Shown: positions 15,305 to 40,532 of the stretch, piece after piece
How positions within the stretch are numbered: the stretch's first letter is position 1
Layout: the number at the start of each line of letters is the position of its first letter
Assembly: GCA_002366755.1 (NCBI GenBank)
Contig: DFBV01000018.1
Span: 15,508 to 64,134 of the forward strand
Source: Anaerolineales bacterium UBA3071
GTDB lineage: Bacteria > Chloroflexota > Anaerolineae > UBA3071
Length of the DNA stretch: 48,627 bases
Direction: 5' to 3'
The notes under the pieces: generated by a model
The model's database searches: none
Seen by the model: only the letters and a program-made list of their open reading frames with translations
Told to the model about the DNA's origin: nothing
Position numbers and translations under genes: made by a program

Positions 15305-15311
15305 GTCCCGC

Positions 15312-25759: not shown

Positions 25760-26104
25760 TCAGTCGCAATAATAGTCATCCTCGCAGTCCCACTGCCAAG
25801 GTGGCCCGTGGCCAGTGAGATACCGATGGCATGTCTTCTGGTAAGTGCAGCCAAAGATGGGCGTGCCATTGCGGTTCACGAAGAGCTGTCGGTCGGGGTC
25901 GTAGTGGCCATCAAGAACCAACGGCTCTGCCTCACTTGTCTGAGCGAACAGCATGCCGAAGGGGACTTCTTCCCCATTCCAATTCAATCGGGTGCAGTTG
26001 CTCTCAGTTACCAGCACAGATGTTCTAGAAAAAGTGCCTTCTACTGCTGGATTTCGCGTAGATTCTCCGCACGAATCTGCCCAAAATCCGGCAAGACAGT
26101 GCAT
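25760..26104 (-). CDS. Candidate RiPP precursor peptide ending ...GCTYQKTCHRYLTGHGPPWQWDCEDDYYCD
   Basis: Only ORF directly upstream of and co-oriented with the ATP-grasp gene. C-terminus is rich in T/K and D/E, with 4 Cys. Start uncertain (ATG 26104 or internal ATG 25954). Confidence 0.55.
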   Translation of the reverse strand: MHCLAGFWADSCGESTRNPAVEGTFSRTSVLVTESNCTRLNWNGEEVPFGMLFAQTSEAEPLVLDGHYDPDRQLFVNRNGTPIFGCTYQKTCHRYLTGHGPPWQWDCEDDYYCD

Positions 26105-26386
26105 TTTGCTCCGGACACTTGCGAGAATTCACCCGAAAAGCCATGGCAGCTGGGGTGAATTCCTAGCAGGTAACCAGGAGCATCTGCACCCAATTCAATC
26201 GGCTATACATCGTTTTCCTCCTTCGTGATAGGTTGAGTAGTACTCACGCTGACCAACGAAGAACTTGGTACTCCAGATTGCCGCTTCGATCACCCCCTTT
26301 CTAGATGCTTGTACTAGAACTACCCAATTTGCCTGCCACCGACTATTGAGAGTTTGAACGAGTCGGCCAGGCGGACGATGGGACGG

Positions 26387-29080
26387 TCATTCATCGCCCC
26401 ACATCTGATAGGCCGGGGCTACCTGCCTCGCGCAGGTCAGGGCCGTTTGACGAGGATCAGCTTCAACATCAGCACCATCGAAACACGCCAGATAGGCTGC
26501 CGCCTTCTCCTGCGCCGCTGTCAGGACGCTCTCTGTCTCTTCCCCTTGGGCTGCAGCGTCCACGGCTTGATAGAACCAATCGCTGGGAACCCATGTGCGG
26601 AATACATCTCTCAGACTGTTCACATGTATTGGGTTTTCAGGAGGGCTAAATTGATCGAGCGTGTGCAGAATCGCTGCCTGACGATCCTCGCCGACTCTGA
26701 TCCTGTAAGCATCAGACATAGCCACCTGGCGTCGTGCTGGTGTTACATAACCCCAAGCAGGCACGTTCTCATTGGAGAGAGGAATGAAGCGTTCGCTCAA
26801 ATAGGTGATCCAGGTCCAGCATCCCTGGATTTCCTCGGGAGTAGCCTGGCTGGAGATGAAGTAGGCCGTCCCGTAACCGAAGAAACCAGGGGAGCCCTGC
26901 TGTCCCGCCGGGAACGCTGTGTAGCCGATGTCGAAGGTCGGCCTTTCGTTCGGTGGAAATGTGATGTTGCTTTCCCACATGGCTGCACGCTCGCTCAGAA
27001 CCAGTTGCTCTGCTTCTTGCATCTCCTCGTAGCTAAACAGGCTCAAGCTGTACTGAGGTTTGATGCCATGCACTCGATGAAGGTCAACGTACCATTGTAC
27101 GGCGGCCACGCCCTGGGGATCGGTGAAACGAGGCTGAGGCTTATCGCCTGGCTCCCATGCCTCTGCGCCGTGCCATCTCATGATGCTGCCTAAAATCGTC
27201 CCTTCGTTTCGGGCTACGTAGGCATAGCGCTCGTCAGCCCCGTTTTGTTCTGTCAGTGAGAGGCTGAATTGGAGAAATTCGTCCCAATCCCAGTCCAACG
27301 GGGGATAGGGCTGTCCAAGGCCATCGAATAGATCTCGGTTGTAGGCAATTAAGTACACATAGACCCAGGCAGGAAGACCGAGGACTCGACCATCACGAAA
27401 CAAGGGCTGGCGAGATACTTCGAAAAAGTCCTCTGGAGAAAGATTGGGATCACTATCAATCAGCGGCGTCAGATCCAAGAGTACTTGTCGATCAACCATG
27501 TCTATGTGCCAGCTTCCCTCGAAGCAGGGGGCCCGGCGGGCTATGGACTCGTGTTGCGGCCAACGGAAGACGGTTTGTGATGGCGCGTGGAGTTCCACAT
27601 TGACGACGATCTCGGGATGTTCCTGTAGAAAATCCTCGGCCAGTAGCAAGTAGGGTTCCACGTCCTCGCTAACCAGAAAATCAATCTCGATCCCTCCTCC
27701 CGCCAGCGTTGGCCCCGGCTCAGGCTCTCGGACGACGACGGGCTGAACATTGAGGTTGACCTGTTGCTTAACCGCCGCGGCAAGCTGGTCCATGACCCGT
27801 GCCTGAGCTTCGGCCAATGCCGCTTCTACAGGCTCCTGCTCGACGAGGACGGCCTTCAATACCGCGTCCAACCCCTGCCGAACAGGACGGGCCAGACTGG
27901 CATCGCCCAAGCGATCGTCGAGGGGAGGGCTGAAGGCACTTACATTGTCGAACACCCAGCGGAAAGCGGCAGCCACGTCGGGGTGCAGTCGTTCCCAGGC
28001 ATCACTGGCCTTGGCAACAGAGCGGCGCGGCGGCAAGTTGTTGGGACTGTAAAGCACGCCGAGAGGAGGAACATCCTGATAGCTGAGCCAGGAGAGCCAG
28101 CGCCACGCTTCCTGGGGATGCTGGGTGCCGCCGCTGATCATGTAGCCTTTATACTCGATGTAACGGTTCGCCTCGGACGATTGCGGATAGGGCACAAAGC
28201 CGAGATCACGCGAGGAGAACTCGAGGCGATCCATGTCACTCGACAACCCGCCCCACATGGCGACCTTGCGAGCATCAATCAGGTTGCGCTCTTCCTGCCA
28301 GCGAGAACTAAAGCTCAGGCCTTCCAAAACTGGCGCCACCTGATGGACGAGGAATAAGTTCGCATACCACTCTAGAGCGGCAACCATTTGGCTATCGGTC
28401 AGATTGACGCGGGGTGGCACATCCATCTCCAGGATGTCTCCCGCCTCGGCCAGCAACCAGTACCTGGTGTGGCGCTGCTGAGGCAGGAAACCATAGCGCC
28501 GATCGCTCGGGCTATCGGCTGAAACGTAGGTGAGACGCTGAGCCGCCTGCAAGAACTCGTCCTTGGTCCATCCTGGCCGAGGGTAGGGCACGTTAGCCGC
28601 ATCCAGGATCTCCTTGTCATACAAGATGCCCCAAAGGTAGAGAGGGCCAGGGAGCCGGACGATGCGGCCTGTTGCATCTGTGGTCAGCGCGCCGGGGAAG
28701 AAATCATCCTGGTTGAAGCCACGATCGGAGTCGATGAACAGCTTCAAGTCGAGGTAATAGTCCTGCCCCTGGTACCGGGCCGGGATTTGCTGGTACACCG
28801 TGTCCGCTAGCTGTGCAATCTGACGGGGGTAGTCGTCTGGCCACTGCGATCGGGGTCCAAGTTCATTGGTCAAGGAAACGATCTGGATGGAGATACCTGG
28901 GTTCTCCTCCTCAAACTGCTTGGCAAGTTCCAGATAAGCAACCTGTTCGCGGTCTTCGACTGCGAACGTAACAACGGTGGGCTCCAGGTTGTCGAGATCG
29001 TGTTGGGGAGCTGGGCTAGAGGTACAACCCACCACTAGCAGGGTGAGGATCAAGAGTGAGCACGCAAGTCTTGTCTTCAT
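26387..29080 (-). CDS. Double solute-binding-protein lipoprotein (two tandem family-1 SBP domains), paralog 1
   Basis: Lipobox LLVVGC after MKTRLACSLLILT (AAGGAG SD). Two SBP_bac_1/8-like halves. Conserved C-terminal Cys pair. Confidence 0.8.
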   Translation of the reverse strand: MKTRLACSLLILTLLVVGCTSSPAPQHDLDNLEPTVVTFAVEDREQVAYLELAKQFEEENPGISIQIVSLTNELGPRSQWPDDYPRQIAQLADTVYQQIPARYQGQDYYLDLKLFIDSDRGFNQDDFFPGALTTDATGRIVRLPGPLYLWGILYDKEILDAANVPYPRPGWTKDEFLQAAQRLTYVSADSPSDRRYGFLPQQRHTRYWLLAEAGDILEMDVPPRVNLTDSQMVAALEWYANLFLVHQVAPVLEGLSFSSRWQEERNLIDARKVAMWGGLSSDMDRLEFSSRDLGFVPYPQSSEANRYIEYKGYMISGGTQHPQEAWRWLSWLSYQDVPPLGVLYSPNNLPPRRSVAKASDAWERLHPDVAAAFRWVFDNVSAFSPPLDDRLGDASLARPVRQGLDAVLKAVLVEQEPVEAALAEAQARVMDQLAAAVKQQVNLNVQPVVVREPEPGPTLAGGGIEIDFLVSEDVEPYLLLAEDFLQEHPEIVVNVELHAPSQTVFRWPQHESIARRAPCFEGSWHIDMVDRQVLLDLTPLIDSDPNLSPEDFFEVSRQPLFRDGRVLGLPAWVYVYLIAYNRDLFDGLGQPYPPLDWDWDEFLQFSLSLTEQNGADERYAYVARNEGTILGSIMRWHGAEAWEPGDKPQPRFTDPQGVAAVQWYVDLHRVHGIKPQYSLSLFSYEEMQEAEQLVLSERAAMWESNITFPPNERPTFDIGYTAFPAGQQGSPGFFGYGTAYFISSQATPEEIQGCWTWITYLSERFIPLSNENVPAWGYVTPARRQVAMSDAYRIRVGEDRQAAILHTLDQFSPPENPIHVNSLRDVFRTWVPSDWFYQAVDAAAQGEETESVLTAAQEKAAAYLACFDGADVEADPRQTALTCARQVAPAYQMWGDE

Positions 29081-29099
29081 GATTGCTCCTTGCGACAAA

Positions 29100-29186
29100 C
29101 TATCGGGAGAAGGTTTCGTTGAGGGTGTAACCCTGGCCATCGGGCGAGCCGTGCCGGTTGTAGCGGCCCTTGAAGTAGGTGAGCAT
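29100..29186 (-). CDS. Possible 28-aa peptide MLTYFKGRYNRHGSPDGQGYTLNETFSR
   Basis: GAGGAAGGG SD 5 nt before the ATG. Occupies the same position (just 5' of an SBP gene) as the other small peptide genes. Could instead be a degraded relic. Confidence 0.25.
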   Translation of the reverse strand: MLTYFKGRYNRHGSPDGQGYTLNETFSR

Positions 29187-29221
29187 GTTTCCCTTCCTCA
29201 ACGGCAGACCCAGCAGGCTCA

Positions 29222-29435
29222 AATCAAAAAGCGCCAATCTCTCAAGGCACAGGCGTGCCCTGAGAAATCGGCGCTCTTCGCGGAGGCCAAACCACCTTTT
29301 CGCTGTGAATTATGGCGGGCTGTTTCCTTCTCTCTCTCTCTCTCTCTTCAAGAACATCTTATCCTCCCCGAACTTCCCATCAGGCACCACTTCGTGGTCT
29401 TGGCCGGTACAATCGTTGCATGGTAATTCTACCAC
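29222..29435 (-). promoter_or_regulatory. ~200-nt leader, copy A: SD-uORF, (GA)n tract, 20-bp terminator hairpin plus U tract
   Basis: About 85 percent identical by eye to 40533-40733. uORF at 29357..29310 (MFLKREREREGNSPP). Terminator at 29226-29275. Confidence 0.65.
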
Positions 29436-29454
29436 AGCTCTCGTGGTTTGTCAA
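29426..29454 (-). promoter_or_regulatory. Sigma70-type promoter TTGACA-17 nt-TAGAAT driving leader A
   Basis: On the minus strand, TTGACA is at 29454..29449 and TAGAAT at 29431..29426, with a 17-nt spacer. Confidence 0.6.
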
Positions 29455-29518
29455 ATCCGCTTTGCCCGTGGTGACGGAAATTCTAAGGTTCTGCAGCCGG
29501 GCTGGCGGGGCAAACGGC

Positions 29519-29553
29519 GGCAAATGGAAAGCCCCTCGCGGATGCACGAGGGG
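29519..29553 (-). terminator. Terminator-like hairpin with conserved 23-mer, after SBP paralog 2
   Basis: Minus strand reads CCCCTCG-tgcatc-CGCGAGGGG CTTTCCATTTGCC. The 23-mer GGCAAATGGAAAGCCCCTCGCGG recurs at 36803. Confidence 0.5.
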
Positions 29554-29607
29554 CTCAGTGTCGCTTCGGGTAACACTGAGCGACTCAGCCTTTTGTCGGA
29601 TCCGAAA

Positions 29608-32136
29608 TCACGGTGCGTCCACCTCTTGGAAGCAGGCGTCGGCGCTCGCCCGCTCTTCCAGGTCAGGGCGCTGCCGCAGGCAGTTCAAGTAGGCTTCGGC
29701 TTTTCCTTGCGCTTGGCTCAGCGCGGCCTGGGCGCCGGCACCGTGCCAGACGATCTCTTGGGCGGCCTGTATCAGCCAGGTGTAGGCCTTCTTGGACCCG
29801 GGCACCCCTTCCAGGTCGCGGAAGACGTCGGTATGTTGATATGCCAGCGATTCCAGGTAGGCAGCCTGGGCTTCCTCCCCCACGTATGCACGGAATTCGT
29901 CAGAGGCCACCAGTGAGCGACGGGCCGGAAGACCATCCTGCGGGATATGGTCCGAGACGAACTTCAGCCATTCCCAGCAGGCCTCGACGTGGGGGGTGTT
30001 GGCGGCGATGTAATAAGCCATGACCATGCTGCGAGGAGCAACGGGCCGACTGCCCCTGGGCAAAGGAGCAGCGCCGATGGAGCGTCCTTGGTACCTGGCC
30101 CACTCCATCCCCACTGACATGGATGACCGGATCCACATCCCGACCCTTCCGCTGTGGATCAGGCTATAATTCAGATCGTACAACTCGTCGTAGCCACCCG
30201 ACCCCGCTTCCAGAGCGGGAGCGACGCCGTCGGTCACCAGGCCAGCCAGTTGCTGTGCTGCTACCACCACGTCCTGCGTGTCGAAGCGGAAACCGGTCGG
30301 CGTTCCCGGGTTGTCCACCAGCGTCCCTGCCATCGCCTCCAGCAGGAATGCCAGGCTGGTGCCCGGCCATAGGACAACGCCATAGCGCTGCTCAGCGCCC
30401 TCCCCGCCACTCAGTTTCCTGGCCGCCACCAGCCAATCGTCCCACGTCCAGCCCGCTGCCGGGAAGAGGCCGGTCTCGTCGAAGAGTGCCTTATCGTAGT
30501 AAAGCACATCCACTGCGACCTGAGCGGGGAGCCCCCACAGGTCATTTTGATAGCGTACCCGCTCCAACACCTGGGGGTCGTAATCATCAAGGGGAAACCC
30601 GGGGTCGGTTTCAATCAAGGGCTGCAGGTTGAGCACACTCTGGCGCGTCTCCTCGGCGAGCGAGGCAGCGGTGAGGATACAGTCGGCGTGGCTGACCGCG
30701 ATCAGCGCCGCCAGGGTATGGTCTTGAGCAGAGAACTCCTCCGCGCCGCGCACCACCACTTCGATCTCCGGGTGGGTCTCGTGGAAGGCTTGGGCCAGCG
30801 CCTCGTATGTAGACCGGTTCCAAACGGGGACGAAGGTGATCGTATCTTTGCCCGGTGGTGCTGGTGTGGGTAAGGGAGCGATGGTAGGCTCTGGAGCCGG
30901 GGTGGCCTGCGCCAGCGCCTTCTGCTGGGCAGCCGACATCGCGGCTTCTACTGCCTCGCCGGCGAAAATCTGGTCGAGGGCCTGGGAGAGCCACACGCGC
31001 ACCATAACCGGCCGGACGGGGGGCAGGGCATGCTCCACCGCGTACTGAAAGGGGGCCAGGGCCTCTGCCCCGGCTGCGGTGGCGAGGGCGGATTCGAGGG
31101 TCAGGCTGCGCCGGGCTGGAAGGAGATCGGGCGGGGCGGCCTGCCGGCTGAGGAACTGTAACCAGCGCCAGGCTGCTTCCGGATGGGAAGTGCCGGCGCT
31201 GATGAAATAACCGTACACGTCCATCAGCGGACCTTTCCCCGGCAAGGGCGCGACCCGCAGAGAGGGACGATCCCGGACTGCCGCAGCCCACGAGCTGGCA
31301 AGGCCCACCGCCATCGCCGCTCGGCCCTCGAGCAGCGGGGCCAGCAGAGACTCCCCTTCTGCCTGGACCGGGTTGAGCATCACGCCGTGGGTCAGAGCCA
31401 GGTCGGCGTACCACTGCACCGCTGCCACCGTGCGGGGGTCATCCAGCATCGGGCGCGGCGGCTCCACCGAGGGGTCCACGATCTGCGCTCCCTGCACTTC
31501 GATCACTGATTCGAGACCCCCTCCCAGGAGGTCAGCGAAGCCGTAGCGCACGACCTGTCCTCCCTCTCGCTGCGTGAGGCGCTGCGCCTGGCTCAGGAGG
31601 TCATCCCAGGTCCAGCCCGCGGTGGGATACACCATCCCCGCATCGTCGAAAGCGGCCGGGTCGTAGAAGACGACGAGAGGGTCCACCCCGGCCGGCAGGC
31701 CCCACGTACCCTCCTGCCAGCGGAAGCGCTCCAGCAGGCCGGGGAGGAAATCTGTCTCGTCTGGCTCCCCGTCGGCCTCGAGAAACGGCGCTAGGTCGAG
31801 CAGCAGGCCAGATGGTCCGACCTCAACGGCGCCCTCATAAACGATAAAGGTGTCGGCGCTGGAGGCCAGTTGTCGCAGGGGAGTGGATCGCTCCACAGGC
31901 ACAATCTGTACTTCCAGGTCAGGGTGGGCATCGTGAAAAGCGTCGGCAACGGCCTGGTAGATCATCTTGTCGTCCATGGGGCAGGCGAAGGTGAGTCTGG
32001 TCAGATTGCCCACATGAGCAGCGGTCGGCGTTTTTCCTGGGGTGGTGCAGGCTCCCAGGGTGGCAATGAGCAGCACCAGCGACAAACTTAGCCTGCCCGC
32101 TCGCTGAGAAAAAGAACGCACTGTGCGGTCTGGCAT
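29608..32136 (-). CDS. Double solute-binding-protein lipoprotein, paralog 2
   Basis: MPDRTVRSFSQRAGRLSLSLVLLIATLGAC lipobox. Two SBP halves joined by a Pro/Thr/Ala linker. Confidence 0.8.
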   Translation of the reverse strand: MPDRTVRSFSQRAGRLSLSLVLLIATLGACTTPGKTPTAAHVGNLTRLTFACPMDDKMIYQAVADAFHDAHPDLEVQIVPVERSTPLRQLASSADTFIVYEGAVEVGPSGLLLDLAPFLEADGEPDETDFLPGLLERFRWQEGTWGLPAGVDPLVVFYDPAAFDDAGMVYPTAGWTWDDLLSQAQRLTQREGGQVVRYGFADLLGGGLESVIEVQGAQIVDPSVEPPRPMLDDPRTVAAVQWYADLALTHGVMLNPVQAEGESLLAPLLEGRAAMAVGLASSWAAAVRDRPSLRVAPLPGKGPLMDVYGYFISAGTSHPEAAWRWLQFLSRQAAPPDLLPARRSLTLESALATAAGAEALAPFQYAVEHALPPVRPVMVRVWLSQALDQIFAGEAVEAAMSAAQQKALAQATPAPEPTIAPLPTPAPPGKDTITFVPVWNRSTYEALAQAFHETHPEIEVVVRGAEEFSAQDHTLAALIAVSHADCILTAASLAEETRQSVLNLQPLIETDPGFPLDDYDPQVLERVRYQNDLWGLPAQVAVDVLYYDKALFDETGLFPAAGWTWDDWLVAARKLSGGEGAEQRYGVVLWPGTSLAFLLEAMAGTLVDNPGTPTGFRFDTQDVVVAAQQLAGLVTDGVAPALEAGSGGYDELYDLNYSLIHSGRVGMWIRSSMSVGMEWARYQGRSIGAAPLPRGSRPVAPRSMVMAYYIAANTPHVEACWEWLKFVSDHIPQDGLPARRSLVASDEFRAYVGEEAQAAYLESLAYQHTDVFRDLEGVPGSKKAYTWLIQAAQEIVWHGAGAQAALSQAQGKAEAYLNCLRQRPDLEERASADACFQEVDAP

Positions 32137-32163
32137 TTGTACACCCCTCTCACCATAACCATT

Positions 32164-32200
32164 GAGATGAAGCCTCCAGTTCACGCTGAGGCTTCATCTC
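32164..32200 (-). terminator. Perfect 13-bp hairpin between small peptide gene and SBP paralog 2
   Basis: GAGATGAAGCCTC-11 nt-GAGGCTTCATCTC. Confidence 0.45.
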
Positions 32201-32223
32201 GACTGTAGACACAAACAACAGGT

Positions 32224-32421
32224 TCAGCAAGGGCCGGGCCAGTCCCCCAGGCGGAACTCGCAGTAGAGGTCGCAGCTACTGCCTGGTGGGTTGCAGTCCG
32301 GATGGTTGACACAGTGGTAGCACCAGTACTCCCAGTGTTGCTGGGTCTCGTATACCTGGCGCGGCCACAAAGTTACATTTTGAAAACACAGAATAGGACA
32401 CAGATTTTCACAGATGAACAC
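32224..32421 (-). pseudogene. Cys/aromatic-rich peptide (paralog of 44112-44336) whose 5' part is replaced by a MITE-like insertion
   Basis: ...HWEYWCYHCVNHPDCNPPGSSCDLYCE... aligns to WCYYCCNHPDCLPYNCCDLFCE. There is no signal peptide, and the N-terminal 18 codons lie inside the AT-rich element. Confidence 0.5.
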
Positions 32422-32512
32422 AGATCAGGCTGCATTGCTGGCGAAAATCGAGAAAAATCCGTAAAAATCAGTGTCAATCAGTGTTAATCTGTGTCCCATA
32501 AAATGTAACCTT
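32369..32512. mobile_element. AT-rich ~140-bp MITE-like element with terminal inverted repeats and 10-bp-phased internal repeats
   Basis: AAAGTTACATTTT...GGACACAGATT versus AATCTGTGTCC...AAAATGTAACCTT. CACAGA occurs at 32387, 32399, 32409 and 32419. ATC(A/T)GTGT(C/T) occurs at 32467, 32477 and 32487. Confidence 0.55.
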
Positions 32513-32638
32513 ATGCCCGTCATCAGTATATATGTGGGGTCATGTAGCGTCTCTCGCGCCGCCGGTTAATGGCCATATCCGTGACAAATGACCCACTAGC
32601 AAGCTCAGGCTCAGTTTTCATCCGTCAAGGTCTTGCCC

Positions 32639-35224
32639 TCACCAGGACTCATAGTCTGGATCTACCTCCTGAGCGCAGGTCTCGCGCAGTTCACCGTCGT
32701 ACTCGCTCGCGGTGACCCGCCCTCCCAGGCAGGCCACGAAAGCCTCCGCCTTGGCCTGGGCCTCGGCCAGGGCTTCTTCCACCTCAGCCCCCTCCATCAC
32801 CCGATCAAAGGCTTCGTAGAACCAGTACCGACGAACCGTGTACACCCAGGGATATTCCTCGTACACGGGATTTACGCTCCCGACACTGCGTTCCAGCGCG
32901 AATTGGAAAGTCGCCAGAGCTTCTTCCCCCACTCGCTGCTGATACTCTGGTGTCTCCATCAAGGAACGCCGTGGGGGAACCCCTTGAACCACTGCGAGCT
33001 GGCCGGTCAGGAACTTGATCCACTGCCAACAGGCTTCTGGGTAGGGTGAGTTGACCGAGATTACGTAAGCGACGATCTTGTTTTGGTTCATTTTCCCCTG
33101 ACCCAGGGGCAAGGGGGCCATACCGACGCGGAAGGGGAAAGCCTGGGCAGGCATATTGCCGGGATACTCGGCCCACATAGCCACCCGGCCTGTGGATACC
33201 ATGTCCCGCTGCCTTTGAAGATGCGCATCTCGATCCCGAAAGTAGTCTTTGATGTAGAGGGGGGGCATCACACCGTGGACCAGGGCCAAGTCGGCGTACC
33301 AGCGCACTCCCTCAACCATTGCCGGGGTGTCCAACTGAGGTCGTGGGGGCCGGGTGGACACGTCCGCCACAGTAGCGCCGTGCTGTCCAAGGAAGAACAG
33401 CAGATCATAGCACACCGGGTCGAGAGGTATGTAGCCGTACTGTTTGCTCTCCCCTTCTTCTTCTCTGGTCAGGGCTACGGCCTTTTCCAGGAAGTCGTCC
33501 AAATCCCAACCCGGCTGGGGATATGCCACGCCTGCCGCGTCGAAGAGGTCCTGGTGGTAATACATCACTTTCACGTCGCCGTCAGCCGGCAGGCCCAGGA
33601 GATCCCCTTGCCAGCGCCAGGTCTCCAGGAACCCGGGATAGAAATCGTCCAGGGGTAAGTCCTGGTCGGCGTCCACGAGAGGCTGCAGGTCGAGGACGTG
33701 CTGGCGATGCTCCGGTACGTAAGGGGTCGTATCGAAAGCGGTAAAGCAATCACAGGCTTCAGCCCAATAGGGAACCCCCCACTGCTCCGGCACTGTCACC
33801 TCCACCATGATCTCGGGATGGTCATCATGAAACGCTTCGGCCAGGGCATGGTAGGGAGCCGTCTCGCCGCGCCCACAGAAGGTGATGGTGACTTCCTCAC
33901 CAGTTGCCCTCTCTGGCTTCGGCGTGGCCACGGCCACGGGTGTCGCTGGGGTGACCTGCTGGGCCTCTTGCGCCGCAGCCAGAGCCTGCGCCTGGGCCTC
34001 GGCCAGGGCCTCCTCCACACCTCGTTCTCCGGCGAAGATGGCGCCCAAAGCTGTCAGGAGTGGCATATCCAGTGACAGCCCCGCAGGCACCTCCATCTGA
34101 AATTTCTCCAGGACGTAGCGGTAGACCGCAGCCGTCTCCTCGTCCAACGAGGCCCAAACGTCCACAGCCCCGGCCAGCGAGCGGCGCGGCGGCACAGTCC
34201 CTTCCTCAGTGGCCAGGGGCTGACGGGTCAGAAAAGTCAGCCAGAGCCAGCTCTCCTGCGGATGGGCAGTCCCGGCGCTCATGGCGTAGCCCGCCGCCTG
34301 TTTCCAGCCCACGATGGCCTTCCCCTCGGGCAGCGGCGCTACGCCCAGGTCAGGATAATACGGCATGTAGTCGCCGAGTTGGTCGGAGTAGCCGGGCCAC
34401 ATGGCCGCCTTGCCGTCCTGGATCAGCTCCACCAGCCGCACGGTCTTTTCGAGGCGGGGCGTGACGCCCTGGCGGGTCAGGTCGGTGTACCAGTTGACGG
34501 CTTCAGCCATGGCTGGATCGTCCAACCGGGGAAGCGGCGGGGTCGTCGTCTCATCCGTCCAGGTACCGGCGCGGCCCAGGATCAGGGCTATTGCCGCGCG
34601 CGGCCAGGGATTGATGAAGCCGTAGCGCAGCGTCTGGTCCCCCTCTCGCACGGTCAACTGCTGTGTCACCTGGGTGAAGTCCTCGTAACTCCAACCGGGC
34701 TGGGGCGGAGCGATGCCAGCCTGGTCGAAGGCGGCTTTATCGTAAAAGATCAAGGCCAGGGTCGTGCGCACAGGCAGAACCCAGGTGCCGCCGTCCCAGC
34801 GGAACTGCTCCAGCAGGCCGGGGTAAAAATCTTCGGCCTCGAAGGTTGGGTCGGCTTCCAGGAGAGGGGTCAGGTCCCGCAGCAGACCCCGCCGCGTGTC
34901 CTGGGGACGGATTAGACCTGCTGGACCGGTGAACGTATCAGCCGCTGTCGCCAGCTTGCTTAAGATATCTCGGTGCTCAGTTCCCAGGATCGCATTCTCC
35001 GACAGCAGCCGCACGGAGATGTGAGGATGGGTTTTGTGAAAACGCTCGGCCAGCCGCTCGTACTGGGGAAGATCCCAATCGTTGACGGCGAAGGTGATGG
35101 TTACCTGCTGGGCGGGCGCAGGGGTCGGCGTGGGTGTAACTTGCGAGGAACAGGCCGCCACCAGTATGACTAAAAGCATCCTTGGGAGTAGACGTTGCAA
35201 AGATCTCGACGGTATCACTTTCAT
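32639..35224 (-). CDS. Double solute-binding-protein lipoprotein, paralog 3
   Basis: GGAAGGAG SD. MKVIPSRSLQRLLPRMLLVILVAAC lipobox. Two SBP halves. Confidence 0.8.
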   Translation of the reverse strand: MKVIPSRSLQRLLPRMLLVILVAACSSQVTPTPTPAPAQQVTITFAVNDWDLPQYERLAERFHKTHPHISVRLLSENAILGTEHRDILSKLATAADTFTGPAGLIRPQDTRRGLLRDLTPLLEADPTFEAEDFYPGLLEQFRWDGGTWVLPVRTTLALIFYDKAAFDQAGIAPPQPGWSYEDFTQVTQQLTVREGDQTLRYGFINPWPRAAIALILGRAGTWTDETTTPPLPRLDDPAMAEAVNWYTDLTRQGVTPRLEKTVRLVELIQDGKAAMWPGYSDQLGDYMPYYPDLGVAPLPEGKAIVGWKQAAGYAMSAGTAHPQESWLWLTFLTRQPLATEEGTVPPRRSLAGAVDVWASLDEETAAVYRYVLEKFQMEVPAGLSLDMPLLTALGAIFAGERGVEEALAEAQAQALAAAQEAQQVTPATPVAVATPKPERATGEEVTITFCGRGETAPYHALAEAFHDDHPEIMVEVTVPEQWGVPYWAEACDCFTAFDTTPYVPEHRQHVLDLQPLVDADQDLPLDDFYPGFLETWRWQGDLLGLPADGDVKVMYYHQDLFDAAGVAYPQPGWDLDDFLEKAVALTREEEGESKQYGYIPLDPVCYDLLFFLGQHGATVADVSTRPPRPQLDTPAMVEGVRWYADLALVHGVMPPLYIKDYFRDRDAHLQRQRDMVSTGRVAMWAEYPGNMPAQAFPFRVGMAPLPLGQGKMNQNKIVAYVISVNSPYPEACWQWIKFLTGQLAVVQGVPPRRSLMETPEYQQRVGEEALATFQFALERSVGSVNPVYEEYPWVYTVRRYWFYEAFDRVMEGAEVEEALAEAQAKAEAFVACLGGRVTASEYDGELRETCAQEVDPDYESW

Positions 35225-35284
35225 TTCATGCTCCTTCCATTGTGTCCGGCTAACCGATCTGAGGTTGCGGACGTCAATCTTATG

Positions 35285-35316
35285 GAAGAGAGAGCCCACA
35301 AAGGAACTCTCTCTTC
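35285..35316 (-). terminator. Perfect 10-bp hairpin after the His-repeat peptide gene
   Basis: GAAGAGAGAG-12 nt-CTCTCTCTTC. Confidence 0.45.
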
Positions 35317-35329
35317 TGTGGCAATGTCA

Positions 35330-35530
35330 CTACTCGCAAACATCTGTGTGCTGATTGGTGTGGTAGTTATTATGGATGTTGTCATGAACACACGCTTCAG
35401 CCACACTTGCCGTGAGCACCATCCCCAGCACGCTGGCAGTCAGCGCTGCTCCCGTCACCACTGCCGCCTTGCGCCCGATGTTGCCCTCTTCGAGTACAAT
35501 GAAGTCGGTCACCTTCTTTGGCACGTTCAT
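35330..35530 (-). CDS. 66-aa candidate RiPP precursor / membrane-anchored peptide with C-terminal C-V-(HDNI)(HNNY)(HTNQ)(HTDV)-C-E
   Basis: GGAAGGAGG SD. Lies 100 nt downstream of and co-oriented with the radical SAM/SPASM gene. Central hydrophobic helix, then four H-x-(N/D)-x units flanked by Cys. Confidence 0.65.
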   Translation of the reverse strand: MNVPKKVTDFIVLEEGNIGRKAAVVTGAALTASVLGMVLTASVAEACVHDNIHNNYHTNQHTDVCE

Positions 35531-35633
35531 CCTGTTTCACCTCCTTCCTGTGTGGGTTTTGTGCTGGATCCGAACCTTTGATATCCATCCAATATCCATC
35601 ACCTCCTTCTCCCGACGGCAATTGGGCATCCCT

Positions 35634-36761
35634 CTACACCCAACTGTTCAAAATGGCTGCCTCCTCACGATTGAGGAGTTTCCTGAACAGGTGGGGGATC
35701 ATCTCCCTGTAGATCTGACATTCGAAGTTGAGGGGAATGTTGGGAATGGGGCTGCCGTGCTGGTTGATGCCCCGCGCCACGCAGTAGCCACAATACGGTC
35801 CGAAGGGGCAAGTCTGACATTCTGGCAACGTCTCGGCGGCCAGAGTGCGCAGGGCCATAGCCGTGTCCGACGTGAAGACCTCGTCGTAGGTGTCGCTCAA
35901 GACGTTGCCCATGATCAACATCGGAACACTGCGACCACCATCGCAGCCGTGAATGGTGCCATTATGACCAACAATGACCTGCGATATACCACAACCGCAG
36001 GGCCGGCGCAGGCACATGTAGGCGTGCGCAGGGTTCAGCACGTTTCCCAGCAGATAGGCCGTCTTGCCCTCACGGAAGCTGTGGCCCCCGCGGTTCTTCT
36101 CCAGCACGTAGTCCAAAGTGCGCTTCCAGGCTCCGACGAACTGCTCCGGCGTCACGCCAACGTCGTAGCCCGACTCATAGGCCCGCCCTAGATAGTTCAC
36201 ATATCGCAAGTACAGAATATTCACGCCGCGCTCGATGTATTCATCAACGATCTCCCTCTCATGCCCCAGCCCGTTGACGGTGAAGGTGGGCAGGAAGGGC
36301 ACGAAGATGTCGTACTCCTCCTTGAGCTTCTCCGCCCAGCGCACGACGTCCTCGTAGGTCCCTCGCCCGCTGGGATAGACCCGCTGCCGGTCGTGCACCA
36401 GCGGTGGGCCATCGAGGGAGGAGCATAGCTTGACGTTGCCTCGCTCCTTGATGTCCTGAGCGATCTCGTCGCTCATCAGCGTAAGGTTGGAGACGATAGC
36501 GAAGCTGAGTTCGATACTCTCCGCCTCAGCCCGCTGCATGGCGTAGTCCATGGCCTTCTGAATCAGGTCGTAGCGCAGGAGAGGCTCGCCGCCCTGGAAC
36601 TCGATGCGCATCTGCTTGCGGCCCTGGCGGGGCACGGAGAAGAAGAAGTCCACGGTCTTGTAGAGCACCTCATCGTCCATGTCCCACTCCTTGCGGGAGA
36701 GCGACTGCGATTTGGCGTGGCAGTAGACGCAGGCCATGTTGCAGCGGTTGGTGGGCACCAT
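35634..36761 (-). CDS. Radical SAM enzyme with C-terminal SPASM domain (peptide-maturase type)
   Basis: CNMACVYC (CxxxCxxC) at the N-terminus. GGEPLL. C-terminal CGCG...C and CQTCPFGPYCGYC auxiliary-cluster motifs. The true start may be upstream (see findings). Confidence 0.85.
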   Translation of the reverse strand: MVPTNRCNMACVYCHAKSQSLSRKEWDMDDEVLYKTVDFFFSVPRQGRKQMRIEFQGGEPLLRYDLIQKAMDYAMQRAEAESIELSFAIVSNLTLMSDEIAQDIKERGNVKLCSSLDGPPLVHDRQRVYPSGRGTYEDVVRWAEKLKEEYDIFVPFLPTFTVNGLGHEREIVDEYIERGVNILYLRYVNYLGRAYESGYDVGVTPEQFVGAWKRTLDYVLEKNRGGHSFREGKTAYLLGNVLNPAHAYMCLRRPCGCGISQVIVGHNGTIHGCDGGRSVPMLIMGNVLSDTYDEVFTSDTAMALRTLAAETLPECQTCPFGPYCGYCVARGINQHGSPIPNIPLNFECQIYREMIPHLFRKLLNREEAAILNSWV

Positions 36762-36802
36762 GATGAAGAGAGAAGGCGGCCGGTGCAGAAAGCCGTAGCG
36801 CT

Positions 36803-36837
36803 GGCAAATGGAAAGCCCCTCGCGGGCGGCACGAGGG
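36803..36837 (-). terminator. Terminator-like hairpin with the conserved 23-mer, after SBP paralog 4
   Basis: Same GGCAAATGGAAAGCCCCTCGCGG block as at 29519. Stem CCCTCG/CGAGGG. Confidence 0.45.
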
Positions 36838-36865
36838 TCTTGGCGACAGACATAAGCTCCTTACG

Positions 36866-39439
36866 TTATCCTCCTCCGTACGTCGCATCCACCTGTCTGG
36901 CGCAGGCATCGGCCCGCTCCTGATCATCCTCGATCTCACTGGCGGCCCAGCAGGCCACGTATGCCTCCGCCTTGGCCTGCGCTTCATCCAAAGCCATCTC
37001 CACCTCTATCCCTTGCGCGATGTCCAATAGCGCCTGACGGAAGCAAAGCCAGATTTGGTCGAACCACGGCGTCCTCTCGGACAGCTCGGGGGTCCGACTG
37101 TCGAAATACTCAACCGTCGCCCGATAAGCAGCCGCCACTTCGCCCCCCACGGCTTCTTCGAAGGCCGGGGAAGCCATGAGAGAGCGACGGGTGGGCAGCG
37201 AGATTCCGGCCGGCCGCTGCTCGGTCAGGTGGGCAAGCCACTCCCAGCACGTCTGAGGATGCTTCGTATTAGCTGAAATGAAGTAGCCGGATAAGTAAAA
37301 CTCAGCCGCCCCTTGAACCTCCCCCAAGGGTAGCGGTGCCATTCCCCACTGCACACCTCTGAATCGTTCCTGTTCCAGGCTCATCCCCATCCACATCGCC
37401 ACCCGCCCGCCACTGATGAGGAGAGCCCGCTGCCGGAAGGCTACAGCCCCTTCTTCTTCCCCTTCTGGCAGAAGGAGCACCGCACCTTTCTCGGCTAGGT
37501 CGAAGAATCTGCGCGCCGCCTCCACCACCTTGGGAGCGTTAAGAGTGGGGCAAGTGGGATGTTGGAGATCATCCACCAGGGAGCCCCCGTGGGCATAGAC
37601 GAAGGGAATAGCCTGGCTGGGCAGCGCAATGAAGCCATACTGTTTGGTTTCTCCCTCACCCTGGGTCAGACGAAGAGCCTTGTCGTAGAAATCGTCCCAC
37701 ATCCAACCAGCCTGGGGGTAGTCCACTCCAGCAGCGTCGAAGAGGTTTCGGTTGTAGAAGAGCACCTGAACCTGTATCGTGGCCGGAAGGGCATAGAGAT
37801 CGCCCTCCCAACGATAGGCGTCCAGCGCTCGGGGACAGAATCCATCCAGGGAAAAGGCGGGATCAGCTTCCAGGAGGGGTTGGAGGTTCAGGACGTGGGG
37901 CAGAGATTCCTCCGGCAAATCGCCCCAGAGGAAGCAATCGGTCTGAGTGGCCGTCTCGACAAAGGAAGATCGGGAGTCCCTGACCACAATCCTGATGTCT
38001 GGGCGTGCAGCAGTGAAGGAACGGGCCAACTCTCGATAGGGCAGGAACTCAGGGCCGTAGGCAAAGGCGATCTCCACTTCCTCCTTAGCTGCCGTTGGGG
38101 TGGCCATGACCACCGGCCGAGGAGGGGTCTGCATAACCTTAACCAACTGAGAGTGGTAGGCCATAGCCTCTGCCTGAGCCTGCGCCAAGGCTGCCTCGGC
38201 CGTCGCCTCCCCTCGAAGCACGGCGCGCAACGCCTGAGACAGCCATCCATACAGGCGGAAGGGGCGTAACGGAGGCATGGCGTGCTCCAGGGCGTAGAGA
38301 TAAGCGGCAGCGTTTTCCTCGCCCATTTGCTCCCGGAAGCCCGAAGTTTCGAACACCGATCGGCGTGCAGGGAGTTCGTTCCTCAGCCGGCGGGTCGTCA
38401 GGAAATGGATCCATTCCCAGCTCTCATGAGGGTGAGCCGTAGCGCCACTAATGTAGTAGCAAGAGAGGAAAACAGCATCAGTTGGCTGTTTTCCCTCGGG
38501 GAAAGGCACAAAGCCCAGGCGCATCTCTTGGGCCGCCTTGGAAAGCGAGTCTGGACGCCTCGGCTCCATCCACATGGCGACGTGCCCCTCCAGAGGCAGC
38601 TCGAATAGAGTGGAGAACTCCATTCCGGAAGTATCGGCCACCACTTGATGGCGAAGGGTCAGGTCGGCAAATTCCCGTAACGCCGTCGCTACCCTCGGAT
38701 CGTCCAACGTAGGGCGGATCGGGTCGGCGAAAGGATCCGCCAGAGACCCGCCATGTCCGTAGATATAGGAAACCAGGAACTGGGGACTAGTGGGGAGAAA
38801 AGCATATTTGACCCCTCGATGCCCGGCCAGGGACTGGGCTTTGGCCAGGAAATCATCCCATGTCCAGCCGATTTGTGGATAGCTCATGCCCGCCTGGTCG
38901 AAAAGGTCCTTGTTGTAAGCGATGAGCATGAGGTTCACCTGGTCAGGCAAGCCCCATAGCTCTTCCCGCCAGGTAAGGCGCTCCAGAAGGCCGGGGAAGA
39001 AATCATCGGCCTTGAAAGTGGGATCAGCCTTGGCCAGGGGATCCAGGTTCAGCATGTAGCCCTGCGCAATCCCATTCCAGGGCTCGAGCGTTAAGGCAGT
39101 GAAGGTATCGGCGGCTGAGGCCAGCAGCCGTATATCTTCCCCTGGCTCGGCCGGCTGGTCCGATTGCAGGTCAAGGATCTCCTCGTAGCTCTTCAACTGG
39201 ATGGTGATGCCCGGATGGGCCTGGGTGAATTCCTCGGCCAGGGGTTCGTAAACTTGGAACGTGCCCTTATAGCAGGCAAACGTGACGGTGACGGGAGCAG
39301 TGGTAGGTAAGGGTGGGAAAGGGCTTGCTCTGACGCCCGCTGGGGCGGTAGGCTCTTCAATCCGTTCAGGGATCGTTGGTGGCCTACAATGAACCAACAG
39401 CAGTGCTGGCAGGACGAATAGAGCAAAGATTTTTCTCAT
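36866..39439 (-). CDS. Double solute-binding-protein lipoprotein, paralog 4
   Basis: AAGGAGG SD. MRKIFALFVLPALLLVHC lipobox. Two SBP halves. Confidence 0.8.
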   Translation of the reverse strand: MRKIFALFVLPALLLVHCRPPTIPERIEEPTAPAGVRASPFPPLPTTAPVTVTFACYKGTFQVYEPLAEEFTQAHPGITIQLKSYEEILDLQSDQPAEPGEDIRLLASAADTFTALTLEPWNGIAQGYMLNLDPLAKADPTFKADDFFPGLLERLTWREELWGLPDQVNLMLIAYNKDLFDQAGMSYPQIGWTWDDFLAKAQSLAGHRGVKYAFLPTSPQFLVSYIYGHGGSLADPFADPIRPTLDDPRVATALREFADLTLRHQVVADTSGMEFSTLFELPLEGHVAMWMEPRRPDSLSKAAQEMRLGFVPFPEGKQPTDAVFLSCYYISGATAHPHESWEWIHFLTTRRLRNELPARRSVFETSGFREQMGEENAAAYLYALEHAMPPLRPFRLYGWLSQALRAVLRGEATAEAALAQAQAEAMAYHSQLVKVMQTPPRPVVMATPTAAKEEVEIAFAYGPEFLPYRELARSFTAARPDIRIVVRDSRSSFVETATQTDCFLWGDLPEESLPHVLNLQPLLEADPAFSLDGFCPRALDAYRWEGDLYALPATIQVQVLFYNRNLFDAAGVDYPQAGWMWDDFYDKALRLTQGEGETKQYGFIALPSQAIPFVYAHGGSLVDDLQHPTCPTLNAPKVVEAARRFFDLAEKGAVLLLPEGEEEGAVAFRQRALLISGGRVAMWMGMSLEQERFRGVQWGMAPLPLGEVQGAAEFYLSGYFISANTKHPQTCWEWLAHLTEQRPAGISLPTRRSLMASPAFEEAVGGEVAAAYRATVEYFDSRTPELSERTPWFDQIWLCFRQALLDIAQGIEVEMALDEAQAKAEAYVACWAASEIEDDQERADACARQVDATYGGG

Positions 39440-39483
39440 CTCTTTTGCCTCCTTGCCTAACCAGGCATCACGCCAATGCTTGG

Positions 39484-39518
39484 AAAGGGGCTGGCAGGGT
39501 TACCCGCCAGCCCCTTTC
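39484..39518 (-). terminator. Hairpin after Cys/Trp-rich peptide gene
   Basis: AAAGGGGCTGGC-loop-GCCAGCCCCTTT. Confidence 0.5.
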
Positions 39519-39559
39519 GGGCAATCGGCCTGTTACGGGCGGGGGAAGCAGCGGTCCTT

Positions 39560-39868
39560 TCAAGTACCACATGGGAAGTGCCGGTCCTCCCAATTGCCAC
39601 AATAGCAGCGCCATTTCCACCCGCTCTCGCATTTCATCCAGAATTCGTCTCCCTCATGCCAAGTCCAACCGTCGATCCCCCAACGACATGACCAGCAAGC
39701 ATCGGGGTATCTCACTATACAGCCTTCGCAGTCCTCAAGGGGCTGCACTGGGCCGGCATTTGCCATAGAGGGCGTGAAGAAACTCACCGCCGCCAACACC
39801 AGCGATGCGACGAGCATTGTGACCAAGCCACCCATGACCACCCTTTGCATTTTACCATACTTCACCAT
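39560..39868 (-). CDS. Secreted Cys/Trp-rich small protein (about 64-aa mature part, 8 Cys, 8 Trp)
   Basis: AGGAGG SD 8 nt before ATG 39868. Signal peptide ...FFTPSMANA, then GPVQPLEDCEGC...WKWRCYCGNWEDRHFPCGT. Confidence 0.65.
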   Translation of the reverse strand: MVKYGKMQRVVMGGLVTMLVASLVLAAVSFFTPSMANAGPVQPLEDCEGCIVRYPDACWSCRWGIDGWTWHEGDEFWMKCESGWKWRCYCGNWEDRHFPCGT

Positions 39869-39957
39869 TTTTGTCACCTCCTATGCAGTTGAATTGATCG
39901 AGCGAAATGTCGGACTGTCCCACTCGTCTTTGCATCTATCACCCCCTTTCACTTCCG

Positions 39958-40515
39958 TCACTCGACTTCGGCCAGCTTTTTCAGTTGCCCCAATGAGTTG
40001 GCGAAGCCCCTGCTAACAACGACGCCACTTTCGTTGATGACGTATAAGAAGGGCGTGCCCGGCACCTTGTAATCCCGCGCCACCCCATCATCCCAGATCA
40101 GAACGGGGAAACCAAACCCTTGCTCCTCCACCAGTTGCTGGTTCTCCTCTACGGAGCCCCGCGAGATCATCACCACTTGCATTTCGTCCATTTCCTCGCT
40201 GAAGGTCTTCAAGTTGGGGGATAGTTCAGCGCAGGCCGGACATCGGGTGGAGGAGAAGACCAGCAACACTCCCTGCCCCGCAAAATCACCCAACGTGACC
40301 GTTTGACCCCTCACGTCGGGCAAGCTGAACTCTGGCGCTTTCGTGCCCTTCTCCAGGCCCGGCGGCTCGCTCACCGCCCCCAAGAACTCCAGCGCTGCTA
40401 CGACGTTATTCTGCAACTGGTTCATTCTGATGAAAAGGCCGATGATGGTCACCATCAACAGGATGACGATGCCCATCAGCATCAGGAGCAGAACGTTGGT
40501 CTTCGTTTCGTTCAT
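39958..40515 (-). CDS. TlpA/ResA-like membrane-anchored thiol-disulfide oxidoreductase
   Basis: N-terminal TM helix and redoxin fold with a CPAC active site (FSSTRCPACAEL). Start is ATG 40515 or GTG 40521. Confidence 0.8.
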   Translation of the reverse strand: MNETKTNVLLLMLMGIVILLMVTIIGLFIRMNQLQNNVVAALEFLGAVSEPPGLEKGTKAPEFSLPDVRGQTVTLGDFAGQGVLLVFSSTRCPACAELSPNLKTFSEEMDEMQVVMISRGSVEENQQLVEEQGFGFPVLIWDDGVARDYKVPGTPFLYVINESGVVVSRGFANSLGQLKKLAEVE

Positions 40516-40532
40516 GGGCACACCTTTGTCGG

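Follow-up and report, generated by a model that had tools for sequence, protein, structure and literature searches.

Relation to described systems

Substrate-binding proteins (SBPs) are the textbook partners of ATP-binding cassette (ABC) importers and are usually lipoprotein-anchored in monoderm bacteria; type VII (MacB/FtsX) ABC machines act via extracytoplasmic partners such as EnvC, LolA, TolC and TesA. A stretch of 48,627 nt from Anaerolineales bacterium UBA3071 (Chloroflexota; Anaerolineae; assembly GCA_002366755.1, contig DFBV01000018.1, positions 15,508-64,134 of the forward strand), hereafter termed the window, holds a system assembled from known parts, namely a type VII ABC module, MalE-fold SBPs and secreted peptides, some of them like peptides that are made by the ribosome and modified after translation (RiPPs). 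Four lipoproteins with two SBP domains each (SBP1-SBP4) are encoded in the window. Here and in related Chloroflexota loci (given as L numbers) such double SBPs are paired with small secreted peptides of two unrelated families (i.e. pepCW and pepHis) in conserved, same-strand, hairpin-separated units. By analogy, the locus appears most like MacB-type two-step peptide secretion or resistance combined with bacteriocin-style precursor-hairpin-partner units. A sequence-only reading of this DNA had described a repeating order of small peptide gene, hairpin and giant double-SBP lipoprotein and knew of no described system with such a layout. Searches of the literature likewise yielded none, and tandem SBPs were found described there neither alongside FtsX/MacB systems nor alongside peptides of these families.

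Among MacB-type systems, MacAB-TolC secretes the Sec-exported, disulfide-bonded enterotoxin STII, and YknWXYZ, a Gram-positive MacB homolog, protects against the SDP peptide (PMC8277102). The locus shares with MacAB-TolC, YknWXYZ and Spr0693-0695 a MacB-type FtsX permease, ABC ATPases and a membrane-fusion protein (MFP). The likeness to MacAB and STII extends to the candidate substrate, which would be a Sec-exported small peptide with extracytoplasmic disulfides and has a MauD-like redoxin encoded alongside. Differences were apparent: the permease is one 999-aa polypeptide with duplicated FtsX stretches, accompanied by two different ATPases, and giant tandem-SBP genes, from one to many, occur inside the operon, for which no precedent was found in the literature. 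The SBPs themselves resemble CUT1 proteins (MalE-like, SBP_bac_1) in their PF01547 and PF13416 domains, superposable halves and lipoprotein anchor. They differ from these in carrying two complete domains in one chain of 850-900 aa without MalF/G/K partners, in being embedded in a MacB-type operon, in their upstream peptide genes and in an unusually fast divergence.

HXS (HxsABCD) is an antiphage defence system, 99.7% of which is found in Pseudomonadota, with the gene order HxsD-B-C-A (PMC13128918). Features in common are an HxsB-like radical S-adenosylmethionine (radical-SAM)/SPASM enzyme, a small exported His-rich peptide (pepHis) with a weak likeness to HxsA3 and, in L065 and L014, an HxsD-like gene. 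The HxsB equivalog model (TIGR03978, cutoff 370 bits) gave 306 bits for the window and 320 bits for L065, and the HxsA3 match of pepHis reached 24 bits against a cutoff of 65. HxsD was absent from the window by tblastn and its match in the relatives was weak (TIGR03976, 29 bits against a cutoff of 50). HxsC, a second radical-SAM enzyme, was lacking in the window, L014, L056 and L065, each of which has a single radical-SAM open reading frame (ORF). Further differences lie in the pepHis core (HDNIHNNYHTNQHTD / CVHDNIHNNYHTNQHTDVCE), which has neither His-Xaa-Ser repeats nor a peptidoglycan-binding domain, in phylum and gene order, and in the additional A24 peptidase, double SBP and MacB-type pump of the relatives' cluster. 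Membership of canonical HXS was rejected on the lack of HxsC and of HxS repeats and on the uniformly sub-cutoff scores. PADLOC returned no defence-system match, only generic radical-SAM/viperin similarity.

Bacteriocin and lantibiotic loci, with LanI as lipoprotein for immunity and LanFEG as ABC transporter for immunity, and the orphan immunity arrays of polymorphic toxins join a conserved leader or signal to a hypervariable core, as is seen here. These loci are also alike in that a precursor gene is followed by a hairpin and then a lipoprotein gene, with an ABC machine associated, and in that intact partner genes stand beside relic peptide genes. A difference is that the putative immunity protein here would be ~860 aa with two SBP folds. 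We know of no antimicrobial activity of pepCW or pepHis peptides. In methanobactin operons, the RiPP cluster includes MbnE, a periplasmic SBP to which the mature peptide binds. It belongs to family 5, has one domain and works with TonB-dependent uptake. The present locus likewise places an SBP gene within a modified-peptide cluster, and the pepHis cores, being rich in His, Cys and Asp, look metal-binding from their composition. The locus differs from methanobactin operons in having no importer, and genes resembling MbnB/C were not seen.

Four tandem-domain SBP lipoproteins

The SBP genes of the window, with starts reset to the first Met ahead of the signal peptide, are as follows.

26387-29080, minus strand: SBP1, tandem-domain lipoprotein of 897 aa, the paralog that diverges most
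29608-32136, minus strand: SBP2, tandem-domain lipoprotein of 842 aa, with near orthologs in L019 and L024
32639-35224, minus strand: SBP3, tandem-domain lipoprotein of 861 aa, identical to family member P0001
36866-39439, minus strand: SBP4, 857 aa, two SBP_bac_1 domains, N-terminal signal and an atypical lipobox (LVHC)

All four paralogs are intact and lie in tandem, as the sequence-only reading had proposed. SBP1, SBP2 and SBP4 share 33-38% identity with SBP3, and PF01547 (SBP_bac_1) matched two separate stretches in every one of the four, at 104-162 bits against a cutoff of 26. Both PF01547 and PF13416 matched each half. The lipobox is canonical in the three proteins other than SBP4 (VVGC, LGAC and VAAC). 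An AlphaFold2 model of SBP3 (pLDDT 85.8) showed two halves, both MalE-like, with a short linker between them. When this model was compared with the PDB using Foldseek, each match covered one half, no tandem template was found, and the targets were all oligosaccharide-binding proteins (e.g. Lmo0181, TMBP, MalE3, AbnE, GacH and UgpB; target-normalised TM-scores of 0.6-0.78). A cluster look-up gave no product names for the window proteins.

In an alignment of 16 family members (A1), Cys was invariant (16/16) at C493, C732, C832 and C850 of the SBP3 numbering, positions located in the second SBP half and the C-terminal helices. These four residues suggest two conserved disulfides that may be peculiar to the tandem-SBP family.

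Peptide genes, relics and maturation enzymes

Upstream of the SBP genes lie two intact peptide genes, their presumptive maturation enzymes and the remains of others.

39560-39877, minus strand: pepCW, intact secreted peptide gene with a Sec-type signal, MTKMVKYGKMQRVVM...SMANA
39958-40521, minus strand: thiol-disulfide oxidoreductase resembling MauD/ResA, membrane-anchored, CPAC motif, preceding pepCW
35330-35530, minus strand: pepHis, intact gene for an HxsA3-like 66-aa peptide with a highly conserved leader, MNVPKKVTDFIVLEEGNIGRKAAVVTGAAL...
35634-36761, minus strand: HxsB-like radical-SAM/SPASM gene, N-terminally truncated by ~100 residues
32224-32421, minus strand: relic of a pepCW/pepCys-family gene, 3' core kept and signal peptide lost
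29100-29186, minus strand: 28-aa ORF, a radical-SAM N-terminus leftover, MLTYFKGRYNRHGSPDGQGYTLNETFSR

The succession of peptide gene, hairpin and SBP had been read as occurring four times in a row. It stands for the two units with intact pepCW and pepHis; in the other two, the supposed peptide genes are a relic and an enzyme fragment. Unit A (redoxin, pepCW, hairpin and SBP4) is intact save its regulator. The mature part of pepCW comprises 64 aa with 8 Cys and 22% aromatic residues, many of them Trp or Tyr. Its family numbers 34 members among 5.8 billion proteins, none with an informative functional name; the signal peptides are conserved and the cores cannot be aligned. Mature peptides of the family are 41-73 aa long and 18-37% aromatic, with the sole exception of L070b (10%), and the number of Cys is always even (8, 10 or 12). 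Even Cys counts and a CxxC redoxin encoded alongside fit extracytoplasmic disulfide formation, and the MauD-like redoxin is, to judge from the sequences, likely the disulfide maturase of pepCW.

Unit B (truncated radical-SAM, pepHis, hairpin and SBP3) is part-decayed and is missing the HxsD and A24 peptidase genes of its relatives. Leaders of pepHis are 62-79% identical between loci, whilst the cores, with His, Asn, Asp and Cys, vary freely. The radical-SAM protein matched positions 87-466 of its model, full-length relatives have 479-488 aa, and DNA homology to the full-length L014 gene runs ~30 nt 5' of the ATG and breaks at a hairpin; together these indicate that the window gene lacks ~100 N-terminal residues.

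In units C and D, SBP2 and SBP1 are intact and only peptide or enzyme relics lie upstream. The Cys-rich ORF at 32224-32421 had rightly been called a relic: the ortholog in L024 carries a signal peptide of the pepCW type (MRKNVRMQKVVLGALATILVASLVLAVMAFAAP) that is lost here, the core …EYWCYHCYNHPDCDPPGSDCDLYCE… is shared, and unrelated, AT-richer DNA now stands in place of the 5' half. Intact related genes occur in L024, L056 and L065. The 28-aa ORF (29186-29100), in contrast, had been taken for a small-peptide gene and was rejected as such, since MLTYFKGRYNRHGSPDGQGYTLNETFSR is the N-terminus of an HxsB-like radical-SAM protein (cf. VLTYFKGRYRKYGPPNGEGYTPNEYFTY in L014 and MLTYFRCRYGRYGSPNGQGYTLNEYFTY in L067). 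The rest of the relatives' cluster (response regulator, A24 peptidase, and the HxsD-like and UshA-like genes) was sought in the window with tblastn and not found. These sequences point to an array that arose by segmental duplication and then decayed, so that of its peptide genes two are intact and one is a relic, besides a fragment of an enzyme gene; units C and D resemble orphan partners that remain after such a process.

Hairpins and regulatory DNA

The non-coding elements of the array, together with one hairpin of a neighbouring graspetide-type cluster, are listed below.

39483-39518, minus strand: hairpin between pepCW and SBP4, 16-bp stem, no U-tract, z = -4.2
35285-35316, minus strand: hairpin between pepHis and SBP3, from the intergenic fold, no U-tract
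32164-32200, minus strand: hairpin 5' of SBP2 and 3' of the pepCW-type relic, 13-15-bp stem, no U-tract
25658-25692, minus strand: hairpin after the graspetide precursor, 14 bp, no U-tract
40533-40743, minus strand: regulatory region 5' of the redoxin gene, duplicated at 29222-29445
29222-29445, minus strand: regulatory duplicate of 224 nt, 5' of the radical-SAM relic and SBP1, with 90% and 78% identity

Hairpins after the small ORFs had thus been placed correctly, and the same arrangement follows the graspetide precursor; the stems pair perfectly or almost so. Whole intergenic regions were folded for 16 related peptide-SBP junctions, and 14 of these contained a hairpin of 12-22 bp at the matching site, the exceptions being the two L022 junctions. 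The hairpin sequences are unrelated. In L024, the SBP2 hairpin has been retained via compensatory changes (window, GAGATGAAGCCTC/GAGGCTTCATCTC; L024, GAGCCGAAGCCTCC/GGAGGCTTCGGCTC). Identical placement with unrelated sequences and the compensatory changes in L024 indicate that the structure is conserved. We infer that these hairpins fit an attenuator or stabiliser that fixes the peptide:SBP ratio.

The duplicate at 29222-29445 contains a terminator-like hairpin (29231-29274; 20 bp and a T-run), and a near-consensus promoter-like site (29454-29426) lies just upstream. Both copies may carry shared, putative regulator-binding sites. A hairpin-plus-tail motif (…cgaggggctttccatttgcc) was found 3' of both SBP2 and SBP4.

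Conservation of the peptide-SBP pairing in related loci

The double-SBP family search gave 155 matches, and all those with a named organism came from Chloroflexota or Anaerolineae. A scan of genomes, for which the closer alignment set A2 was used, identified 47 double-SBP loci in Anaerolineae, Chloroflexaceae and Roseiflexaceae. A check of synteny in relatives had been suggested for the pairing of peptide and SBP, and the pairing recurred from both the SBP side and the peptide side: the unit of peptide gene, hairpin and double SBP was present in >20 Chloroflexota loci, including loci found from the peptide. A pepCW-type gene stands directly 5' of a double SBP in the window, L007, L022 (twice), L024, L037, L047, L054, L069, L070 and L071, and is preceded by a redoxin gene in L022, L047, L069, L070 and L071. 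A pepHis-type gene has this position in the window, L014, L054/L057, L056, L058, L059, L062, L063, L065 and L066.

Contigs looked up from pepCW alone showed the order OmpR-type regulator, AhpC/Redoxin, pepCW and double SBP in all three cases, one being interrupted by an insertion sequence (IS) element and one continuing into an MFP gene. A metagenome scan with the pepHis leader produced 11 loci, in seven of which a double SBP lies directly downstream. The remaining four comprise two contigs that end too early to tell (L061 and L068), one locus with an IS element 3' of the peptide gene (L067) and one with the SBP upstream and an A24-like peptidase downstream (L064).

Comparison of the window with L014, L056 and L065 revealed identities of 83-84% for the radical-SAM protein, 77% for FtsX, 68-83% for the ATPases and 59% for the MFP, whereas the SBP next to pepHis in these loci and the best window paralog share only 36-52% identity. 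On these identities the SBPs appear to change at a much higher rate than the genes around them, and the cores of the peptides likewise. In a rough neighbour-joining tree, the pepHis-linked SBPs formed one superclade and the pepCW/pepCys-linked SBPs, including SBP4, another, with one exception (L007).

Other peptide-bearing arrays were also seen. In L053 (4319-5816 and 10066-11578), an ABC exporter, a MauE-MauD fusion and a leader-type peptide with 8 Cys are repeated 5' of double SBPs; this Cys-rich peptide is not of the Sec-signal type and contains …EDVAE(K/R)LFGRFLP(Q/E)I(E/K)AQASC…. In L054 (7068-7247 and 9779-9886), short A24-peptidase-like relics follow successive SBP genes, indicating that the duplicated segment of that array included the peptidase.

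A MacB-type module as genomic neighbour of the double SBPs

The module of the window lies on the same strand as the SBP genes.

10242-17501, minus strand: MacB-type (type VII) ABC module, 9 kb downstream of SBP1
15693-17501, minus strand: MFP, matching RND_mfp (TIGR01730) at 110.7 bits against a cutoff of 94.9
12437-15436, minus strand: permease of 999 aa in which FtsX is duplicated (two stretches, 80 bits), with MacB_PCD at 29 bits against a cutoff of 27
12010-12468, minus strand: 23S rRNA intervening-sequence protein (23S-IVP, PF05635), flanked by the FtsX permease and first ATPase genes
10946-12013, minus strand: ABC ATPase (ABC_tran)
10242-10949, minus strand: ABC ATPase (ABC_tran)

The array had been described as free of any ABC permease or ATPase. 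This holds within 26387-39868 but not for the window, in which the MFP, FtsX permease and two ATPases occupy 10242-17501 and a further exporter lies at 22741-24690. No TolC-like gene was present among the annotated neighbours, although no search aimed at TolC was made.

In related loci, a MacB-type set is adjacent to and downstream of double SBPs on the same strand in L013, L014, L016, L020, L023, L035, L045, L053 and L071, and it also adjoins or interleaves with them in L002/L015. In L002, L003 and L004, the two ATPase genes enclose SBP genes, which overlap them or are set apart by 11-27 nt. Counted from locus lengths and matches, 9-10 of the 23 genome loci holding at least 12 kb of sequence show such adjacency, and the MacB-type ABC system is the most consistent partner of the double-SBP family. 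We read the array of the window as belonging to a neighbourhood of genes specific to Chloroflexota, with this MacB-type machine at its centre. The closest relative with context, L014 (FtsX 77% identical), has the order regulator, radical-SAM, pepHis, SBP, A24-like peptidase, HxsD-like, MFP, FtsX, ATPase and ATPase (family assignments taken from L065 homologs). The fullest order was that of L065: ECF (extracytoplasmic function) sigma factor, DUF4367 anti-sigma factor, pepCys-type gene, HxsB-like radical-SAM, pepHis, double SBP and Peptidase_A24, followed downstream by HxsD-like, UshA-like and MFP genes.

The claim that no MalF/G-type permease adjoins these SBPs held for the window and for 68 related loci. 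An EAA-motif scan and phmmer searches of the 69 sequences (779 kb, window included) found none beside any double SBP; the sole match, in L049, lies beside split single-domain SBPs and serves as a positive control. Nor were MalF/G/K-type importer genes found in SBP operons across the Pfam-annotated contexts. An ordinary sugar ABC operon was rejected, as no MalF/G-type permease was found anywhere near these genes.

A gene for a 23S rRNA intervening-sequence protein has a matching position in L002 (6094-6283), a distant Chloroflexota metagenome-assembled genome.

Other features of the window

1-7060, plus strand: Tad/Flp-type pilus genes (CpaE/ParA-like ATPase, T2SSE, T2SSF and TadE-like)
8659-9745, plus strand: mobile-element genes, with an IS605 OrfB-like helix-turn-helix ORF near 9239-9745
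18502-21408: HAD-phosphotransferase(APH)-nucleotidyltransferase triple fusion of 968 aa
22741-26104, minus strand: graspetide-type cluster of precursor, hairpin, MvdD-like ATP-grasp and ABC exporter
within 25760-26104, minus strand: graspetide precursor, PFGMLFA motif in the leader and C-terminus rich in Cys, Asp and Glu; TIGR04186 at 18 bits against a cutoff of 25
24584-25636, minus strand: MvdD-like ATP-grasp; TIGR04187 at 269 bits against a cutoff of 350, MvdD pre-ATP-grasp domain at 44 against a cutoff of 27
22741-24690, minus strand: ABC exporter, separate from the MacB-type module, with homologs directly 3' of double SBPs in L017 and L053
40828-43353, plus strand: two IS transposase ORFs (DUF772/DDE_Tnp_1_6), one truncated, upstream of the redoxin gene
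44347-45267, minus strand: DUF4367 anti-sigma factor, orthologous to the anti-sigma heading the L056 and L065 clusters
45254-45808, minus strand: ECF sigma factor, orthologous to the sigma factor heading the L056 and L065 clusters

The gap between the SBP array and the MacB-type module is filled by a segment (18000-27000) with a GC content of 0.51-0.55, as compared to ~0.58-0.68 in the flanks. It contains the graspetide cluster, purA, an LD-carboxypeptidase gene and the triple fusion. We take the PFGMLFA motif of the graspetide precursor to resemble the conserved leader motif of microviridins. The IS ORFs at 40828-43353 occupy the site of an OmpR-type response regulator in relatives. The window has Tad/Flp pilus genes but not the A24 prepilin-peptidase-like gene of the relatives' peptide-SBP clusters.

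Proposed mechanism and alternative explanations

The sequence-only reading had proposed cognate ligand-receptor, carrier or immunity pairs rather than nutrient uptake. In its favour, the pairing is conserved and sugar-import partners are absent; its generality suffers from the fact that only two of the four units are intact and that most family members have no peptide gene. Starting from the gene units observed, their conservation, the hairpins, the association with a MacB-type system, the lack of importer permeases and the quick divergence of the SBPs, we tentatively favour, with somewhat less than even confidence, that the double SBPs bind the secreted peptide of their own unit, either for capture and self-protection or as the specificity subunit of the MacB-type pump. 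The repeated unit would consist of a regulator, a maturation enzyme, a secreted hypervariable peptide, a hairpin and a double SBP. Sec would bring pepCW, and leader processing pepHis, to the extracytoplasmic face, and both would be cross-linked outside the cytoplasm, via disulfides or radical-SAM chemistry. The hairpin could allow high expression of the peptide and lower expression of the SBP from one transcript, whose membrane-anchored double SBP would then bind the mature peptide. Acting on the SBP-peptide complex, the MacB-type machine would expel the peptide or keep it off the producer membrane, in parallel to the secretion of STII by MacAB and the protection against SDP by YknWXYZ. SBP2 and SBP1, next to relics, would be orphan partners. 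By analogy with these systems, peptide binding and hand-over to the pump are plausible. The more specific proposal, that the tandem SBPs are specificity or immunity subunits of an unrecognised SBP-dependent type VII ABC system, each of them capturing its cognate, heavily cross-linked hypervariable peptide outside the cytoplasm for presentation to the MacB-like pump, is unlikely in our estimate, though far from negligible; under it, the arrays would act like polymorphic toxin/immunity or signal/receptor islands, with orphan SBPs retained past the decay of their peptide gene.

Several observations weigh against peptide binding. The pump module is 9 kb from the SBP array in the window, with the lower-GC segment including purA between them. 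In the family at large, most double SBPs lack a peptide gene upstream, and gaps of 23-260 nt between successive SBP genes are common; peptide-free arrays occur in L021, L032, L043 and L035/L038, the last being one Chloroflexia genome with at least 10 copies. The peptide-free Chloroflexia arrays (gaps of 50-260 nt) show that peptide binding cannot be the family-wide function. Sequence comparison agrees with the fold in placing each SBP half nearest to oligosaccharide binders (AbnE, MalE, GacH and TMBP), and in L005 an anti-sigma::double-SBP fusion adjoins a GH1 glycosidase gene, which hints at sugar sensing. The quick divergence of the SBPs could also stem from birth-and-death turnover of paralogs.

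These points bear most on glycan capture or sensing, in which the double SBPs would bind oligosaccharides and serve nutrient uptake or sugar sensing through permeases encoded elsewhere, the MacB-type system or sigma/anti-sigma pathways, with the peptide modules only co-located or co-regulated. We regard this as a minority possibility but a substantial one, as both sequence and fold match solely CUT1 oligosaccharide binders and large arrays manage without peptide genes. ECF sigma/anti-sigma pairs are interspersed with SBP genes (L043 and L072), as is likewise the case in polysaccharide-utilisation loci. What speaks against glycan capture is that the 779 kb searched hold no MalF/G-type permease beside a double SBP, although the positive control was recovered, that glycoside hydrolases are absent from the annotated contexts save L005, and that position, strand, hairpin and spacing are strictly kept for two unrelated peptide families, which makes hitch-hiking unlikely. 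A role in peptide signalling, in which the double SBP is the extracytoplasmic receptor for the peptide of its unit in an autoinduction or kin-recognition loop, relayed to an anti-sigma factor (DUF4367 or zf-HC2) or a two-component pathway whilst the pump merely exports the signal, is in our view quite unlikely. It would account for the zf-HC2 anti-sigma::double-SBP fusions beside ECF sigma factors (P0034, P0064-66, P0069, P0081 and P0097; L005 and L072, where the fusion heads an array of three further double SBPs), for units headed by ECF sigma/anti-sigma pairs (L056 and L065) or OmpR-type regulators (L014, L047 and L069-L071) and for the upstream regulatory region shared by two window units. 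Yet the window SBPs are unfused lipoproteins with no evident transducer and no adjacent histidine kinase, embedding between two ATPase genes favours a transporter subunit over a sensor, and peptide-free arrays misfit a scheme of one signal and one receptor.

Two further explanations dispense with an interaction between peptide and SBP. The SBPs might be cargo of the FtsX/ABC module, acting as a Lol-like extractor or surface-display machine that takes them to an outer layer, with the peptides unrelated. Weak LolC/LolE matches of the permease, lipoboxes in three of the four SBPs and the embedding of SBP genes in the operon would agree with this; but the LolC/E matches reach 38 bits against a cutoff of 362, the module includes an MFP, which to our knowledge Lol systems lack, and neither the peptide pairing nor the rapid divergence of the SBPs is explained, so that we consider the idea very improbable. 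Alternatively, there may be no functional unit, the layout being a by-product of segmental duplication and of mobile RiPP cassettes in a permissive paralog array. The relics, duplicated regulatory DNA, IS elements and low-GC insert do mark a recombinogenic locus, but many independent genomes and metagenomes show this gene order again, peptide-first searches included, and we give this explanation scarcely any weight.

Implications

A conserved joining, within operons, of giant tandem SBP lipoproteins to a MacB-type pump would extend the partners of type VII ABC systems by a new class, and the MalE fold would gain a new role if the SBP-dependent type VII reading is true. The chance that the system represents a new functional class is a meaningful one. 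Two uncharacterised peptide families have been defined, one aromatic-rich with 4-6 disulfides and linked to a MauD-like redoxin, the other divergent and HxsA3-like, and concrete peptide/SBP pairs are now available. The label 'multiple sugar transport system substrate-binding protein' is best avoided for these genes. The hypervariable secreted peptides encoded 5' of the SBPs point to an unexplored peptide biology of Chloroflexota, possibly in secretion, self-protection or signalling.

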